Shown here piece by piece: positions 1-5,451 of a stretch of DNA of 5,451 nucleotides (within the stretch, counting starts at the first letter, position 1; each line of letters opens with the position of its first letter). The notes under the pieces were generated by a model, which worked only from the letters and a program-made list of their open reading frames with translations, was not told the DNA's origin and ran no database searches. Source of the stretch: a virus (taxonomy: Duplodnaviria > Heunggongvirae > Uroviricota > Caudoviricetes); the IMG/VR virus record IMGVR_UViG_2728369181_000007. The stretch is one strand, 5' to 3'. The translations under genes and the position numbers were made by a program.

Positions 1-420
1 ATGACGGATTATCAGCCATACAGGAAAGGAACTGTGCTTGCCCCAACTGGACCATGCAATCATCTTCATGTGATTTGTAATGATCCTGTTTATTACCCCG
101 TTAACGATTGTTATTGTGTTTTAGTTGTTAATATTTCTAGTATCAAGGATGGTGTCCCCCACGATCCGTCTTGCGTCTTGAATTCTGGTGATCATCGCTT
201 TATCAAGCATCCAAGTTATGTTGTTTACGCTGAAGCTATAATTTGGCGAGTGGATAACATGGTTAGAAAGCAGCGATCGGGTGAGATTTCTGTTCATGAT
301 GATATGCCAGAAGCTACATTCAATAGAATTCTGGACGGTTTTGATATCTCTGATGAAGTTACGCCAAAGAACCTTAAATTTAAAAATAAATATTGCGTAT
401 CATCTATTGATGATGAGTAA
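1..420 (+). CDS. hypothetical protein, 139 aa, Cys/His-rich, encoded by an AT-rich gene (cargo/moron-like)
   Basis: ATG at 1-3 (window edge, so the true start could lie upstream), TAA at 418-420. It is the only long ORF on either strand across 1-450. Composition is visibly more AT-rich than the prophage operon, with runs such as ttaaatttaaaaataaatatt near the 3' end. Six Cys and six His (e.g. CNHLHVIC, DCYC). No family recognised by eye. Confidence 0.4.
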   Translation: MTDYQPYRKGTVLAPTGPCNHLHVICNDPVYYPVNDCYCVLVVNISSIKDGVPHDPSCVLNSGDHRFIKHPSYVVYAEAIIWRVDNMVRKQRSGEISVHDDMPEATFNRILDGFDISDEVTPKNLKFKNKYCVSSIDDE

Positions 421-680: not shown

Positions 681-962
681 TTAGTGATTTTCTTTGCCCT
701 TCTGTTTGACTGTTCTGACCTGTTCCCACTCGATACGTCCTTCTTCTCGCCTTTTGTCTATGTATTCCGCAAGATCCTGAATATTGATGCAACGTTTTGC
801 TTTTTGTGATGTGCCGATGCGATATGTTGGAACGGGCAACTTACAAGCGTTTGCTTTTGCTTCTGCCGTGGCTGGACTCATACCAAAGTACTTTTGGCTA
901 ACTGCTGAGAGTTCAATGTTTGGGGTATTGAATTCAGCCATCAGTAAAAACAAGGTGTTCAT
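681..962 (-). CDS. small excisionase-like / PrtN-like DNA-binding protein, 93 aa
   Basis: Minus-strand ORF with TAA stop at 683-681. Preferred start is ATG at 962-960, preceded by GGAG (revcomp of 968-971) 6 nt upstream; alternative in-frame starts are ATG 974 and GTG 989 (the track's 102-aa form). It is the last gene of the operon, directly after the exonuclease, which is where the excisionase gene torI lies in KpLE1. The family assignment is from memory of similar prophage proteins and is not verified. Confidence 0.5.
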   Translation of the reverse strand: MNTLFLLMAEFNTPNIELSAVSQKYFGMSPATAEAKANACKLPVPTYRIGTSQKAKRCINIQDLAEYIDKRREEGRIEWEQVRTVKQKGKENH

Positions 963-998
963 AATTTTCTCCATCAAAACCGGCTGCACCCGGGAAAA

Positions 999-1571
999 TC
1001 ATAATTCTGTGCTGGTGGCAGGAATTAATTTCTGCCAGATAGCGGAAACATATTTTGCCTGATGACGGGCATCGGCCAGGGCGTTGTGCCGTTCGCCATC
1101 GAAAGGCATGTCCATTTTGGGGTCGAATCCGATGGAACGCCCAAGCGTAACGATCGTGCGTACATCGTGGTCATTCCAGTATGCCCACGGGCAAATTTGT
1201 CCTGCTCGCTCATAAGCTCCACGTAAAATTACGTTGTCGAAGGTGGCCCCGTTACCCCAGACTTTTAAATATTTCGTATTGGCTGCATGCCGGTTAATGA
1301 AATGATTTAGTTCTGAGAGAGCATCGCTGATCGACAAAGTATCATCAATACAGATTGCAGCTCGTGCTTCAGGGCTTTGTTTCAACCACCACAGGATGGT
1401 ATCGCCGTCAGGTGTAGCTCCTTGCCCCATAGCACTTTCCAGGCTAACAACCGTATAGAATTCTTGTCCGATGTCTCCGGTTTCTGGAGTGAAGAACACC
1501 GCGCCAATGGAAACGATCGGTGCATCCTTATTTTTCCCCATCGTCTCAAGGTCGATCATTAAGTTGTTCAT
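999..1571 (-). CDS. DEDDh-type 3'-5' exonuclease (DnaQ/RNase T-like), 190 aa
   Basis: Exo I-like motif MIDLETMG (D-x-E), Exo II-like WGNGATFD, Exo III-like HNALADARHQAKY (H-x4-D). Start is ATG at 1571-1569, which overlaps the upstream gene's TGA stop (minus-strand reading gTGAtg); GTG at 1574 is an alternative. Stop TGA at 1001-999. Confidence 0.75.
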   Translation of the reverse strand: MNNLMIDLETMGKNKDAPIVSIGAVFFTPETGDIGQEFYTVVSLESAMGQGATPDGDTILWWLKQSPEARAAICIDDTLSISDALSELNHFINRHAANTKYLKVWGNGATFDNVILRGAYERAGQICPWAYWNDHDVRTIVTLGRSIGFDPKMDMPFDGERHNALADARHQAKYVSAIWQKLIPATSTEL

Positions 1572-2137
1572 CACTTCACCTCCTGCGGCGGTTCCGGTAG
1601 CGGCATCCAGTGAGTTGCTTGCTCAATACCATTACCCGGCTTAATCGTTGCATCTCCGCGCCGAAAGGTGCTTCCGGTATAGCGTGCGGAGCATATTAGC
1701 GGTTCAACCAGATCACTATCGAAATTCACCGAAATAAGTACGTTCTGATTCTTTTTCGGCATTAGCTCACTACAGCTTATCCAACCATCCGGAGTTACCG
1801 GAGAGTTGCCATTTACATCGAAGTTTGGCTCTGCGTCCTGAACCAGGAGGATGTAACCATTCTTGGCTGTATCAAGTTCTAACGCCTCGGTGACGGTGCC
1901 GAAATAGCGATTACCTAAATCAGCATCACAAGTGCTTACATCAATGGAAACTTCCATGCCTTCGATTAATTCTGGCAAGTTGTAAGTTTGGCTTACAGGC
2001 TCTGCTTCCAGCGATACCAGTGCAATTCGTGCCAGTTCTTCCGCTTCTTCTGCTGGCAGTACAACGTTGCTGCCAGGTCCGTATGTTTCGCGCCACTGCT
2101 GGATTGTCAGCAGGCGTTCTTTGGTAATAGTGGTCAT
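1571..2137 (-). CDS. DUF551 domain protein, 188 aa, prophage accessory
   Basis: The C-terminal sequence ATHWMPLPEPPQ matches what I recall as the hallmark of DUF551 proteins of enterobacterial prophages. ATG at 2137-2135 is preceded by AAGGTG about 9 nt upstream; stop TGA at 1573-1571. Confidence 0.7.
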   Translation of the reverse strand: MTTITKERLLTIQQWRETYGPGSNVVLPAEEAEELARIALVSLEAEPVSQTYNLPELIEGMEVSIDVSTCDADLGNRYFGTVTEALELDTAKNGYILLVQDAEPNFDVNGNSPVTPDGWISCSELMPKKNQNVLISVNFDSDLVEPLICSARYTGSTFRRGDATIKPGNGIEQATHWMPLPEPPQEVK

Positions 2138-2332: not shown

Positions 2333-2860
2333 TCACTCTCCTTTGATGCGAATGCCAGCGGCGCGTGGCACATTAACTTCCACGATGCGCACAGTTGGTT
2401 TGTACATCTCAATCGCAGTCAGCCAGTCAGCTCCTGTCATGCGCTTTTCCGCATCGCCATTAGTCCACTGAACCGGTACACCAATAGCCTTCATCGCGAT
2501 TTCTATTTCCCCGGCAATGGCGCTTTTTCCGCAACCAGTAAAACCAGATACAACGACAAGAACTTCGCCTTTGGCTGGTTTTATTTCCCGTGCTTCCAGT
2601 TCTGCAATACGCTTTTTTGCTGCTTCCAGTTCATCCAGTAATTCCAGCACGGTAGCCGGATTAGCCTTGGCAACAAAATCCCGGACTGGCTTACAATCAA
2701 TCTCCGCAATGGGTTGATACGATGTGTAGCCATGCTGTCTTGTATAACTACCGTGACGAATAACGAAAAAATCACCGTTTATTTTTTTAGCCTGCCACTT
2801 ATCTTCACCGGCTTTCACTGCCGCCTCACGCAGTGCCTGATAGTCAATTTTGTTTGTCAT
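2333..2860 (-). CDS. Ead/Ea22-like prophage protein with coiled-coil segment and a C-terminal Walker A-like motif, 175 aa
   Basis: The N-terminal region (DYQALREAAVKAGEDKW...) and a coiled-coil stretch (LELLDELEAAKKRIAELEARE) resemble Ea22-like proteins. GFTGCGKS fits the Walker A pattern GxxxxGK[ST]. ATG at 2860-2858 overlaps the upstream TGA as ATGA; stop TGA at 2335-2333. Confidence 0.65.
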   Translation of the reverse strand: MTNKIDYQALREAAVKAGEDKWQAKKINGDFFVIRHGSYTRQHGYTSYQPIAEIDCKPVRDFVAKANPATVLELLDELEAAKKRIAELEAREIKPAKGEVLVVVSGFTGCGKSAIAGEIEIAMKAIGVPVQWTNGDAEKRMTGADWLTAIEMYKPTVRIVEVNVPRAAGIRIKGE

Positions 2861-3735
2861 GTAACTACCTCTTCGAATTTCAACTCCAGTTGATCACCCC
2901 AGATTTCACATGACTCTGAACACGAGCCGGTATCGAATCGCCCGGCCTGCACCATCGCCTGATACAAATTCCAGTAGTCGCTGTCGGCATACATTCTGGC
3001 AATCCCTTCAAGACTCAGATGACCACGGTACATAACGTCTTTACCTGTTCTGCGATGACCGTCCCTGACGTGTTGGCCTGTAACCAGTTCATTAAAAACC
3101 CGCATCAGGCCAGGTTCGTCCTTACATGCAAGCCCCAGCTTTTGCGTTGACTTTTTGATGCAGAAAACACAGTTCCCGAGGTGCTCAGGGATAAGTAAAT
3201 CGAACGGCTGTTTACGCCACCACCGGATAACATCCGACTTATCAAAATCTGACAGTTCGGCGAGATACCGGACGCCCGGTTTCGGTTTCAGCCTGCGGGG
3301 TTCGTCTGCACGAATACCCAGCCATGTGATGTAATTCCCTCGCCCAAAATGGTCATCGCAATATTTCGTGAAAGGGGTGAGTTTTAGCCTGTCAGTACAG
3401 AATGCGCCGCCGATGTATGGCGTACCGTACTTTTTAACCATGTCCATAAACGGTTTAAGCACCGGCATTCGCGTCTGAATATCCTTTGGTTCCCATTCCG
3501 TATAACCATTTGGCTGCCCAAGCTCTGGATTTATATCGACCTGCAACACAGTTAGCGGTATGCCCCAGAACTTCACAACCTCCCGAATAAAGCGGTATGT
3601 CAGCGGATGTTCGCAACCGGTATCCATAAAGATGTAGCAGACGTTATTGCCAGCCTTTCTTTGTTCTTCCATCAGGTGAACAAGATATGCAGATGTTCTC
3701 CCGCCAGAAAAACTAACTACATGAGTTATGCACAT
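2857..3735 (-). CDS. PP-loop ATPase, phosphoadenosine phosphosulfate (PAPS) reductase family protein, 292 aa
   Basis: N-terminal PP-loop SFSGGRTS (res 8-15) followed by FMDTG (res 36-40), typical of the PAPS reductase/ATP-sulfurylase-like fold. Two Cys pairs, CVFC (res 189-192) and CSESC (res 272-276). ATG at 3735-3733 overlaps the yfdR 3' end by 10 nt; stop TGA at 2859-2857. Confidence 0.8.
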   Translation of the reverse strand: MCITHVVSFSGGRTSAYLVHLMEEQRKAGNNVCYIFMDTGCEHPLTYRFIREVVKFWGIPLTVLQVDINPELGQPNGYTEWEPKDIQTRMPVLKPFMDMVKKYGTPYIGGAFCTDRLKLTPFTKYCDDHFGRGNYITWLGIRADEPRRLKPKPGVRYLAELSDFDKSDVIRWWRKQPFDLLIPEHLGNCVFCIKKSTQKLGLACKDEPGLMRVFNELVTGQHVRDGHRRTGKDVMYRGHLSLEGIARMYADSDYWNLYQAMVQAGRFDTGSCSESCEIWGDQLELKFEEVVT

Positions 3736-4262
3736 TTGCGTAATTCCGATAACTCGTTGAAGCGTTCCATAAACATCCCGTAGGCATGGCCCGGTGCCAG
3801 TGGAATCACTTTGAACATCTCTGTTGCCGGGATACCTTCCAATACAGGCCAGAAAGAGCCATCATCAAGTCCGAGATCGCGGCGTTCGGTTGCCAGCATG
3901 ATGAGATCGGCATATTTCACTGGCGTGCTCATAACAGGAGGTAACCCGTATTTCTCACGGATTACGGCGTCTATTTTTTCTTCCATCCGTTTATAGTCAG
4001 GAAGAAGTCGTTTCAGTGGTGCGGGGATGTCCTGGCAATACGCTTCTGTTGCATCATGCATTAACGCTTCAAAAGCAAATTCCTGCGGCACCAGCTGGCT
4101 GCAAAGCACCGCATGCTGGGCGACACTGTAGAAGTGTGAAAGATGTCCTGCAAAGCGACAGATATTTGAAAGGGAAACCGCGATATCGTTAATCACGATG
4201 TCGTCTTTATTTATCTTGTCATAATAAAAATGCTTCCCGGAAAAAGTTTTAATAAATGACAT
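3726..4262 (-). CDS. yfdR: HD-domain phosphohydrolase (5'-deoxynucleotidase-like), YfdR homolog, 178 aa
   Basis: The H...HD motif (AQHAV ... LMHDATEAY) marks an HD domain. I chose the internal ATG at 4262-4260 (MSFIKTFSGK...), preceded by GGAG (revcomp of 4269-4272) 6 nt upstream, giving 178 aa, which matches my recollection of K-12 YfdR. The track's 199-aa form starting at 4325 has no comparable RBS. Stop TAA at 3728-3726. Confidence 0.85.
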   Translation of the reverse strand: MSFIKTFSGKHFYYDKINKDDIVINDIAVSLSNICRFAGHLSHFYSVAQHAVLCSQLVPQEFAFEALMHDATEAYCQDIPAPLKRLLPDYKRMEEKIDAVIREKYGLPPVMSTPVKYADLIMLATERRDLGLDDGSFWPVLEGIPATEMFKVIPLAPGHAYGMFMERFNELSELRKCA

Positions 4263-4356
4263 TTCGTTCTCCACTTTATATGCGCTGCACCGCGCTGAAT
4301 TCGGGTAAAAGGAATCCCGCACCATCCGGCGATTATTGAGTTAATTACGTTTCCAT

Positions 4357-4378
4357 AAATGCCCCCGCAGGGGCATTT
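4357..4378 (-). terminator. perfect 9-bp inverted-repeat hairpin in the yfdQ-yfdR intergenic region; possible weak terminator/attenuator or RNA processing site
   Basis: aaatgcccc (4357-4365), loop cgca, ggggcattt (4370-4378). It lies 12 nt downstream of the yfdQ stop on the minus strand. The U-tract is short (UUUAU), so if it is a terminator it is weak. The 128-nt gap is the only sizeable intergenic space in the operon. Confidence 0.3.
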
Positions 4379-4390
4379 GCAGTAATGAAA

Positions 4391-5215
4391 TCAGGCGGTG
4401 AAAGTACCAATAAAGGTTTCTACTTTGCTGTCTTTGAATTTCTCAACAAGCAGATCACGAAATTCGTTAGCCATTTCTTCCTGCACTGCTTCCAGCTGAA
4501 TAATGCGCAGAACCAGTACAGGACGATCGCCAGTGATAATGCTGAGGCGTAATTTAAATGGACGTTCTTTCAGACCTTCAAACGGAACGCATTTAAATTC
4601 AAATGCCACTGGCATAATGTCTTTGGTCTTCGCTTCGACAGACTCCATCAGGGAGCGTTTGCCGCTGAAGTCATTATCTTCAAAATCAGCGGTCTGGTTC
4701 GCTTCAATTGTGATTTTACGGATCGCCGCAGCCGCTTTGGTTGCCTGAATGGCGTCACCATTAGCATCAAAGCCCACAAGGTAGTCGGCCCAGTCTTCAA
4801 TCCATTCTGCCAGTGACTTCTGGGAGTTACGCTCGCCATTAACAGACAACAGAGCAGAGAACGGTGCTGTCTTTTTCAGTTTGAGAGTGGCGGTGTTATC
4901 TGCGTGACCTGGTTCATCAATAGTACCCAGGTTAAGCACACTGACGGCTCGCATATTATCGGCATCGATAAAGCAGCGGGTGCCTTCATCTGCAAGATCT
5001 TTAGAATAACGGGTAAAGTCATCGATGCTGGCAGTGGAAAGTGCACCACGGAAACGGAAACGATTTAAATTAAATTTTTCCAGATCATGAATGCGGAAAT
5101 TCTCAGGCAATGCCACAGCATCGGCACCAATCTTACTGATAATTTCATTAACACCCTGAGCAGAAATAAGGGCATGGATTTGATTAATTGCGGTTGAGTC
5201 TAAGTTCTGAGACAT
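4391..5215 (-). CDS. yfdQ: DUF2303-family prophage protein, YfdQ homolog, 274 aa
   Basis: ORF of 274 aa beginning [12 protein letters not shown], matching the length and, as far as I recall, the sequence of K-12 YfdQ, and lying immediately upstream of yfdR as in KpLE1. ATG at 5215-5213 with GAGG about 8 nt upstream; stop TGA at 4393-4391. Confidence 0.85.
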
Positions 5216-5280: not shown

Positions 5281-5451
5281 TTAATTACCTGCTGCGCGGA
5301 GTTTTCCGTCAGGTTCACCGGCAAGAGTCAGTAATTGTCCCTGGTCTTCCTGCAGAATAGTCAGGCGACCACCGCGATTGACATACATCGGCGTTTCGGT
5401 GGTGTCTTCTTCGGAAATTTTCCCGCGGTTAGTCGGGCGAACATATGAGAG
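5281..5451 (-). CDS. 3' end of an upstream operon gene (partial, 56 codons visible; sits where yfdP lies in KpLE1)
   Basis: Hand translation of the minus strand gives an open frame from the window edge to TAA at 5283-5281 (...LSYVRPTNRGKISEEDTTETPMYVNRGGRLTILQEDQGQLLTLAGEPDGKLRAAGN*). Same strand as the operon; absent from the track because it has no start inside the window. The identity with yfdP is positional only. Confidence 0.45.
   Translation of the reverse strand, partial: LSYVRPTNRGKISEEDTTETPMYVNRGGRLTILQEDQGQLLTLAGEPDGKLRAAGN

Follow-up and report, generated by a model that had tools for sequence, protein, structure and literature searches.

Comparative analysis of the yfdP-yfdQ-yfdR region of an SfV-type Escherichia coli prophage suggests two separable units

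The genes yfdQ and yfdR lie side by side in the window, the whole 5,451-nucleotide stretch of viral DNA analyzed here, and a preliminary description made from the sequence alone read them as a pair in an intact operon whose products act together in host takeover or nucleotide-pool manipulation. Does this locus carry such a pair, or are yfdQ and yfdR separable units that happen to be neighbors? The explanation that we consider probable as a whole is a yfdP-yfdQ cassette ending in an RNA hairpin, next to a separate yfdR unit that acts on DnaA.

Identity and context of the genes

The protein-coding features that bear on this question are the following:

5281..5451, minus strand: 3' part of yfdP (last 56 codons and the stop; the gene runs off the window), 98% identical to K-12 YfdP residues 65-120
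4391..5215, minus strand: yfdQ, DUF2303, 274 aa, by PF10065, phrog_210 and identity to K-12 YfdQ
3726..4262, minus strand: yfdR, HD-domain 5'-(deoxy)nucleotidase, DnaA-binding in the case of the K-12 protein, 178 aa, by identity to K-12 YfdR, phrog_318 and PDB 2gz4
2857..3735, minus strand: PAPS-reductase-like (SspD/DndC-like) gene, by Pfam PAPS_reduct (E=3e-9) and PADLOC SspD (E=2.5e-15)
1571..2137, minus strand: DUF551 protein, 188 aa, by Pfam DUF551 (E=8.6e-20) at residues 118-185

The names given to the two genes at 3726-5215 were confirmed by the BLAST comparison that the preliminary description had proposed: YfdQ is identical to K-12 YfdQ (b2360) at 272 of 274 positions with no gaps, and YfdR to K-12 YfdR at 176 of 178, the differences being N151K and D169E. 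YfdQ also matches PF10065 over residues 8-272 of its 274 (E=6.5e-93, 311.3 bits against a cut-off of 26.6) and phrog_210 (E=6.5e-120). The open reading frame that holds YfdR spans 3726..4325; by annotation and conservation the gene starts at the ATG at 4262, served by a ribosome-binding site, GGAGAA, at 4272..4267, and not at the ATG at 4325, which sits in a hairpin loop not conserved in other genera.

The assignment of YfdR as an HD phosphohydrolase was likewise borne out. The HD motif is intact, and H50, H69, D70, E73 and D119 do not vary among 54 distinct homologues; its residues align with those of the HD protein in PDB 2gz4 (E=1.9e-13), and the protein matches phrog_318, labeled 'deoxyribonucleoside 5' monophosphate phosphatase' (E=4.5e-110). 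Scores fall below the YfbR-type cut-offs (Pfam PF12917, 24.0 versus 25.9 bits; NCBIfam PRK03826, 19.9 versus 122), and on these sequence criteria YfdR is a separate phage clade (phrog_318) that is related to YfbR and is not its orthologue. Phosphatase activity of YfdR on CMP has been reported in the literature, as has the finding that deletion of yfdR does not raise CMP yield.

The window is part of the early-left region of a lambdoid prophage of E. coli of the SfV/CPS-53/ST64B type. Excisionase, Ead/Ea22, DUF551 and exonuclease genes lie within the window, integrase and cI-like genes are present in its best genomic match, and the gene order of phage SfV matches that of the window. Of 5426 complete E. 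coli genomes, 3012 have the 1490-bp yfdQ-yfdR segment (95-99% identity), with the annotations 'YfdQ family protein' and 'yfdR: 5'-deoxynucleotidase'; the arrangement of the whole window (at least 80% of it covered) occurs in just 17 of the 5426. As a finding, then, yfdQ and yfdR are already known: they are annotated in thousands of genomes, the link to DnaA dates from a 2016 paper, and a description from 2025 has the yfdP-yfdQ-yfdR cluster as common in lambdoid early-left operons.

Downstream of yfdR the window carries the PAPS-reductase-like gene at the place held by yfdS in K-12, and its product has no similarity to YfdS. Among 80 viral-contig loci, which are all 99-100% identical and serve for local mosaic statistics only, yfdR is followed by this gene in 9 and by YfdS in 61. 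A tblastn search of the window with K-12 YfdS and YfdT returned nothing significant (best E=0.9 and 0.037, respectively). The 188-aa DUF551 protein is the only YfdS relative in the window, at the domain level and with no BLAST-level match to YfdS (in K-12 YfdS, DUF551 lies at residues 50-117), and its N-terminus bears a weak resemblance to YfdT (36% over 47 aa, E=0.037). PADLOC gave no match for YfdP, YfdQ or YfdR, and an anti-phage defense role for these three was set aside on that ground.

The association of yfdQ with yfdR

The preliminary description stated that YfdR interacts with DnaA and inhibits replication initiation when overexpressed. [quoted passage not shown] Of the overexpression claim the link to DnaA stands, but inhibition by YfdR as such does not, as the initiation block needs multicopy yfdQ and yfdR together with yfdS or yfdT, and yfdR or yfdQR alone is insufficient (PMC4776307). 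DnaA binding and the genetic requirements are restated in PMC12122000. Of the yfdQRST set the window contains yfdQ and yfdR and lacks yfdS and yfdT; the published replication block depends on a third gene that is absent here, and the capacity of the window's gene set to block initiation is therefore only putative.

If YfdQ and YfdR formed a dedicated two-protein unit, by complex formation or regulation, for host takeover or a change in the dNMP pool, the two genes would be expected to be needed together and to travel together. [quoted passage not shown] The distribution of the genes is similarly divided. yfdR lies directly downstream of yfdQ in 78 of 80 E. coli-type viral loci (99-100% identical) and follows it in 59 of 80 species-level loci, but these are 59 of 70 enterobacterial loci and 0 of 10 outside the Enterobacterales, and yfdR is absent in 4 of the 6 inspected phage genomes that carry yfdPQ. 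Phage records with a YfdR-type protein number 333 and those with YfdQ 183, and the two sets belong mostly to different phage groups; many phages, among them those of Bacillus, Caulobacter, Rhizobium and Stenotrophomonas, have YfdR-type genes and no listed YfdQ match. The co-occurrence anticipated in the preliminary description is thus real but lineage-limited, and obligate pairing of yfdQ with yfdR fails.

In contrast, a yfdP homologue is directly upstream of yfdQ in 79 of 80 species-level loci, the exception being cut by a contig end, and in all six phage genomes inspected (SfV, ArgO145, pAN, Vibrio 64E30.1, CP2 and Psymv2). The invariant partner of yfdQ is yfdP, not yfdR, and PMC9181523 lists yfdPQ as the transcription unit. 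yfdQ and yfdR are 128 nt apart, separated by a structured spacer with a covarying hairpin directly after yfdQ. A sigma-70 promoter scan found no site in this spacer and one in the entire window. At its other end yfdR shares 10 nt with the next gene, in K-12 as well as in the window, where the start of the PAPS-reductase-like gene overlaps the yfdR stop; judged from this arrangement, yfdR appears to be translationally coupled to whichever gene comes next. Given the structured spacer on one side and the overlap on the other, the term 'intact operon' fits yfdR and its downstream gene better than it fits yfdQ and yfdR. Together, these observations make a dedicated two-protein unit unlikely. As part of the explanation favored as a whole, yfdP-yfdQ and yfdR are probably two separable units that are neighbors by chance in enterobacterial phages.

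The structured element after yfdQ and the structure of YfdQ

The spacer contains the following features:

4259..4396, minus strand: structured element conserved behind yfdQ, doubling as leader of the following gene (covariance model R1)
4343..4392, minus strand: hairpin HP1, with compensatory changes across genera
4319..4332, minus strand: hairpin HP2, TCGCC-GGAT-GGTGC, consensus ATCGCC-N4-GGCGAG, with a double change in relatives
4282..4295, minus strand: hairpin HP3, GCGC-GGTGCA-GCGC, seen by eye, the MAFFT columns being out of register

Full-length matches to covariance model R1 occur only directly after the yfdQ stop, at about 54 loci, 11 of them without yfdR. In this element of about 140 nt, 96.2% of cells are paired as against 37-48% for slid partners, two-sided changes affect 10 pairs as against 2-4 in controls, and 0 of 500 shuffles reach the observed values. 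An Rfam search of the yfdQ-yfdR spacer returned no family. The inner stem of HP1 is formed by AAATGCCCC/GGGGCATTT at 4378..4357 and the outer stem extends into the yfdQ stop codon; compensatory pairs across genera are AU (9)/UA (8), GC (13)/GU (3)/CG (2)/AU (1), and CG (8)/UG (8)/GC (2)/UA (1). The G-U pairs on the minus strand point to RNA. Nearly every locus checked has a hairpin after the yfdQ stop, regardless of the next gene, and ArgO145 shows only a weak fold. The U-tract of HP1, GGGGCAUUUAUGG, is poor, which makes HP1 at best a weak intrinsic terminator, and a terminator scan did not flag it. In HP2, 4 of 19 sequences have UA in place of CG, a double change, and this hairpin is confined to the spacer type of 130-150 nt; for HP3 the variants seen by eye are GCAG..CTGC, GCGCT..AGCGC and GCGCC..GGCGC. 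The element also includes a conserved unpaired block with the consensus GGGATTCGTGCAACCAAAA.

This element is possibly new, and is the only item here that is. It may be an undescribed cis-acting RNA that couples the next cargo gene (yfdR, SSB, HNH or genes of no assigned function) to translation of yfdQ, where the ribosome that terminates at the end of yfdQ would open the hairpin at its base and permit read-through or translation; the same element would also show where a mobile yfdP-yfdQ cassette, encoding a large homo-oligomer of new fold, is joined by recombination. We offer this extended reading as a speculation of low probability.

YfdQ was called uncharacterized in the preliminary description. 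Structurally this is no longer wholly the case because PDB 9O7M, 'YfdQ Protein', contains a homologue. This 274-aa protein matches YfdQ over residues 16-273 (E=7.9e-45), is 98.8% identical in sequence to a Xanthomonas phage MET23-P3 protein and was deposited as 36 chains. Among the conserved residues of YfdQ are R52/R54/R56, H104-D106-N107, Q132-K133 and E137-W138. A literature search for a paper on 9O7M found nothing relevant, and a PDB search with the YfdP-like protein and the downstream 401-aa protein, made to see if the entry contains them too, gave no match for either. The AF2 model of YfdQ has moderate confidence (pLDDT 77.7); Foldseek found no PDB match for it with E<=0.001, and a BFVD search returned other DUF2303 proteins only. 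As modeled, the YfdQ fold is an orphan, and the search for a functional analogy from fold was given up on these results. Two other candidates were also rejected: YfdQ as a DNA mimic, since its pI of 4.97 is only mildly acidic and uninformative, and fold analogies for YfdP, whose NTF2-like or dioxygenase-beta-like matches are weak (E>0.01, TM about 0.3).

yfdP-yfdQ could serve DNA recombination or repair, for example as an unrecognized ssDNA-annealing or DNA-coating oligomer, with the yfdR neighborhood incidental. Annealing proteins that form rings or filaments are deposited as many-copy entries, as was the homologue in 9O7M. The gene directly 3' of yfdQ encodes SSB in Vibrio phage 64E30.1 as well as at Proteus, Kistimonas and Hahella loci, MET23-P3 and ArgO145 have recombinase, exonuclease and SSB genes no more than 4 kb away, and yfdQ deletion is reported to cause weak MMS and H2O2 sensitivity (PMC4776307). 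However, SSB is found within 6 kb in only 4 of 80 loci and RecT in none, for which the idea was downgraded, and YfdQ resembles no solved recombinase or annealing protein by Foldseek. ArgO145 has yfdPQ in addition to a complete Rec module, from which PMC12315714 argues that a recombination role is unlikely. We regard this role as improbable.

Less likely still is that a decaying prophage in the sequenced cell carries the pair as inert cargo and that the DnaA effect is an overexpression artefact with no biological role: the best genomic match sits in a prophage remnant whose Rha, tail-tube and DinI genes are truncated, deletion of yfdQRST changes neither initiation nor hydroxyurea resistance, and the authors allow that the effect may be an artefact (PMC4776307), but both reading frames are intact and 99% conserved over thousands of genomes and in functional phages such as SfV, SfIV and Stx phages, catalytic residues are invariant across genera and compensatory changes keep the flanking RNA structure, all of which points to selection that acts at least during the phage's life cycle.

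A two-unit explanation and its relation to known systems

In the explanation favored here, the first unit would be the yfdP-yfdQ cassette, ending in the conserved RNA hairpin, and the second yfdR, a predicted HD-domain metal-dependent 5'-(deoxy)nucleotide phosphatase with strictly conserved catalytic residues. On prophage induction the leftward early transcript would read through the hairpin, and YfdR would accumulate and bind DnaA domain I at Phe46, the effect on DnaA having been shown for the 99%-identical K-12 protein. Since YfdR competes with DiaA and DnaB at DnaA, helicase loading at the host origin would be reduced. YfdR may also dephosphorylate (d)NMPs, as its family and conserved active site suggest. 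YfdQ is needed genetically for the K-12 block, probably in an indirect manner, whether by acting on another target or by serving as an oligomeric scaffold.

As a conserved unit, yfdP-yfdQ plus the RNA structure at its 3' end merits study rather than yfdQ-yfdR, and the deposited many-copy structure of the YfdQ homologue should reveal the role of the protein. If it is true that a YfdQ assembly makes YfdR an effective DnaA inhibitor, this would explain how the phage shuts off host replication initiation.

Dmp of phage T5 is a 5'-deoxyribonucleotidase, a phage-encoded dNMP phosphatase, and is presumably the origin of the PHROG label carried by the YfdR family. T5 is virulent and degrades the DNA of its host; SfV-type phages are not known to have such a program. 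[quoted passage not shown]

Other proteins that act on DnaA are DiaA, Dps and Bacillus subtilis SirA at domain I and lambda P at domain III. The folds are unrelated, YfdR being an enzyme-type HD protein that by itself inhibits only moderately. The residue that YfdR contacts, Phe46, is also the contact residue of DiaA and DnaB, and parallels the action of SirA at Phe49 of B. subtilis DnaA (PMC4776307).

The 9O7M protein belongs to the DUF2303 family, as does the window's YfdQ, in a match that is clear but distant. Its gene in MET23-P3 is preceded by a yfdP-like gene, as yfdQ is, but has no adjacent yfdR; recombinase, exonuclease and SSB genes come next instead. Closest to the window are yfdP-yfdQ-yfdR-yfdS-yfdT of K-12 CPS-53 (KpLE1), whose yfdP (partial), yfdQ and yfdR are 98-99% identical to those of the window, and orf32-orf28 of SfV. 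Order, spacer and the 10-nt overlap at the yfdR stop are as in the window in both, whereas 3' of yfdR the window has the PAPS-reductase-like gene, Ead/Ea22, a small ORF and the gene of the 188-aa DUF551 protein in place of yfdS and yfdT.

Gene content and identity of YfdQ and YfdR

The window is the int-proximal end of a lambdoid prophage early-left region, and the genes of interest all lie on its minus strand. Its features are as follows.

yfdP, 3' end: 5451..5281, minus strand
yfdQ (DUF2303): 5215..4391, minus strand
spacer between yfdQ and yfdR: 128 nt
structured element: 4259-4396, minus strand; an extended hairpin that includes the yfdQ stop codon, two further hairpins and an unpaired conserved block
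yfdR (HD domain): 4262..3726, minus strand
PAPS-reductase-like gene (SspD/DndC-like): 3735..2857, minus strand
Ead/Ea22-like gene: 2860..2333, minus strand, then a small ORF
DUF551 protein, 188 aa: 2137..1571, minus strand
Rv2179c-like 3'-5' exonuclease: 1574..999, minus strand
PrtN-type excisionase: 989..681, minus strand
139-aa ORF, convergent: 1..420, plus strand; phrog_19071, without a Pfam match, beginning at the window's first base

In Shigella phage SfV the gene order is cI, orf33, yfdP, yfdQ, yfdR, yfdS, yfdT, xis, int. In E. coli MSB1_9I, the best genomic match, the segment lies within a degraded prophage beside dusA, together with a cI-like repressor and an integrase. The 139-aa ORF directly follows a Panacea-domain gene in this match and may encode the toxin component of a PanA-type toxin-antitoxin system. 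Between this ORF and the converging excisionase gene stands a strong, bidirectional terminator-like hairpin (GAAAACCCGCC-TTCA-GGCGGGTTTTT, 652-677). Simple scans of the whole window found terminator-like hairpins in excess (16 found vs 4.8 expected) and sigma-70-like promoters to be scarce (1 found vs 8.2 expected).

The preliminary description had placed yfdQ and yfdR at 3726-5215, and both genes were recovered at exactly these coordinates. The window's YfdQ is identical to K-12 YfdQ at 272/274 residues, with DUF2303 over its full length, and YfdR to K-12 YfdR at 176/178. The yfdR ORF reaches 4325, but the true start is the annotated one at 4262. GGAGAA precedes it in an arrangement kept across genera; the upstream ATG at 4325 sits in a hairpin loop that is not conserved. 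The 1490-bp yfdQ-yfdR segment was found in 3012 of 5426 complete E. coli genomes, 2454 of which cover at least 80% of it.

YfdR retains the complete HD signature (H50, H69-D70, E73, D119), which does not vary among 54 distinct homologues from several genera, including a Pseudomonas phage protein. Its PHROG match is phrog_318, "deoxyribonucleoside 5' monophosphate phosphatase" (E=4.5e-110), and it also matches HD protein 2gz4, but its scores for the YfbR families stay under their curated cut-offs; it forms a separate phage clade and is not a YfbR orthologue. The strict conservation of its catalytic residues argues that catalysis is under selection, beyond DnaA binding alone. The Rv2179c-like exonuclease recurs in the same region of 27/80 species-level loci, and in Pseudomonas phage pAN (L165:7212-8524) it directly adjoins the YfdR-like HD gene. 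An exonuclease beside a nucleotidase may point to a nucleic-acid degradation route.

A PDB sequence search with YfdQ returned 9O7M, "YfdQ Protein" (274 aa, 36 chains, E=7.9e-45), whose sequence shares 98.8% identity with a Xanthomonas phage MET23-P3 protein (L169:6962-7786). The phage gene is preceded by a yfdP-like gene and followed by recombinase, exonuclease and SSB genes. No paper for 9O7M was found in a literature search. Its example chain is labelled C; chains A and B possibly hold other molecules, but need not. The AF2 model of YfdQ (pLDDT 77.7) had no significant match among solved structures in a library that covers entries first released through April 2026 and lacks 9O7M, and among viral models it matched DUF2303 proteins only; on this model, the fold is an orphan. 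The family comprises 1464 clusters at 50% identity, all of ~270 aa. A search for defence systems gave no matches for YfdP, YfdQ or YfdR.

Co-occurrence of yfdP, yfdQ and yfdR

To compare gene neighborhoods, 80 loci, one genome per species, were searched with the window's proteins. A YfdP homologue stood directly upstream of yfdQ in 79/80, the sole miss being at a contig end, and yfdP-yfdQ was present in all six phage genomes inspected, down to 33-40% identity for YfdP. YfdR lay within 6 kb downstream of yfdQ in 59/80 loci, usually after a gap of 55-147 nt, with an insertion of 650-1160 nt in six. Over the same 6 kb it was missing from all ten loci outside Enterobacterales (Marinobacter, Photobacterium, Hahella, Kistimonas, Pontibacterium), and it was also missing from eleven enterobacterial loci. 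Where yfdR is absent, the next gene encodes an SSB, an HNH endonuclease or a protein of unknown type. Only two of the six phages carried a YfdR homologue, namely SfV and pAN, the latter at 2 kb distance. Among 50,697 phage records, YfdQ homologues occurred in 183 and YfdR homologues in 333. Outside enteric lambdoid phages the two groups largely differ: YfdQ was found in Vibrio and Xanthomonas phages and YfdR in Bacillus, Caulobacter, Rhizobium, Stenotrophomonas and Ruegeria phages, with Vibrio and Pseudomonas phages common to both.

The preliminary description had read yfdQ and yfdR as a pair acting together, a reading that depends on their co-occurrence across prophages. Linkage is tight in the E. 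coli type (78/80), but given the species-level count and the absence of YfdR outside Enterobacterales, co-occurrence fails in part. The yfdQ-yfdR arrangement is a lineage-specific neighborhood, whereas yfdP-yfdQ is the universal pair and yfdP the true constant partner of yfdQ. Independently, a study of the SrsR regulator gives yfdPQ as the transcription unit (PMC9181523). By contrast, yfdR shares 10 nt at its stop with the start of the gene after it, in the window as in K-12.

Enterobacterial-type yfdP-yfdQ-yfdR loci were also seen in records titled Chryseobacterium sp. (L128), Geobacteraceae MAG (L136) and Martelella alba (L095/L124), and the spacer after yfdQ in L128 is identical to a Scandinavium spacer. 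These loci probably reflect contamination or mis-binning rather than a wide host range.

YfdP is 120 aa and had no Pfam match in the local library. It is predicted to form a long helix and a three-stranded sheet, and its model had no convincing structural relative. The C-terminal tail (consensus GGKLTILQEDQGQLF...) is conserved but modelled at low confidence, and might resemble an interaction peptide. A recombination role for yfdPQ was considered and judged less likely: SSB is adjacent in only 4/80 loci and RecT in none, and Stx phage ArgO145 has yfdPQ beside a complete Rec module, in agreement with the argument in PMC12315714.

The structured element following yfdQ

All 28 yfdQ-yfdR loci compared have a GC-rich hairpin that starts ~15 nt past the yfdQ stop and shows compensatory changes. 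Across 19 genera aligned with MAFFT, 96.2% of cells at the proposed pairs were paired vs 37-48% when partners were slid by 1-3 columns, and ten pairs had both-sided changes vs 2-4 in these controls; none of 500 shuffles reached the observed values. G-U pairs are frequent on the coding strand and point to an RNA structure rather than a DNA palindrome. A hairpin also follows yfdQ in loci with a gene other than yfdR downstream, as well as in Pseudomonas, Vibrio, Xanthomonas and Psychrobacter phages; in ArgO145 only a weak fold follows the stop. Searches with a covariance model spanning all ~140 nt gave full-length matches only directly after yfdQ (~54 loci, eleven without yfdR). No Rfam family matches the yfdQ-yfdR spacer. 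As its U-tract is poor, the hairpin may act as a weak terminator, stabilize the yfdPQ message or belong to the next gene's leader. Of the features described here, only this element may be new; the yfdQ-yfdR subject is already known.

Comparison with the K-12 and SfV clusters

[quoted passage not shown] DnaA pulled down YfdR only; YfdQ, YfdS and YfdT had no high affinity for YfdR or DnaA, and deletion of the cluster had no initiation phenotype, and the authors allow for an overexpression artefact (PMC4776307). The preliminary description's statement that YfdR interacts with DnaA thus holds in substance, but its accompanying statement that YfdR inhibits initiation when overexpressed is too simple, as the published block requires three components. 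According to a 2025 paper on lambdoid phages, yfdP, yfdQ and yfbR/yfdR-like genes are fairly common in early-left operons, being neither confined to phages that lack a Rec module nor found in all of these (PMC12315714).

In K-12 and SfV, yfdR is followed by yfdS, whereas the window has the PAPS-reductase-like gene in that place; among 80 close relatives, these genes follow yfdR in 61 and 9, respectively. The PAPS-reductase-like gene (2857-3735, minus strand) begins 10 nt before the yfdR stop and matches PADLOC SspD (E=2.5e-15), with weak DndC and BrxP matches. ArgO145, which lacks yfdR, has a 93%-identical gene after its yfdPQ region. The product may be a phage PP-loop enzyme with a link to DNA sulfur modification or to its defeat.

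No YfdS or YfdT orthologue was detectable in the window, and its 188-aa DUF551 protein has only the DUF551 domain in common with YfdS. This protein (1571-2137, minus strand) has a mosaic look, its N-terminal ~45 residues being weakly similar to the K-12 YfdT N-terminus (E=0.037) and its C-terminal domain being DUF551 as in YfdS. Orthologues therefore do not supply the three components here, and one should not presume that the window's genes block initiation. Coverage of the window reaches 80% or more in only 17/5426 genomes, as expected of a mosaic region.

The best supported account is one of two neighboring units: a yfdP-yfdQ cassette with a conserved RNA structure at its end, and YfdR, an HD nucleotidase that also binds domain I of DnaA. 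Their functional link is a genetic one, which depends on a third gene and is confined to enterobacterial phages.
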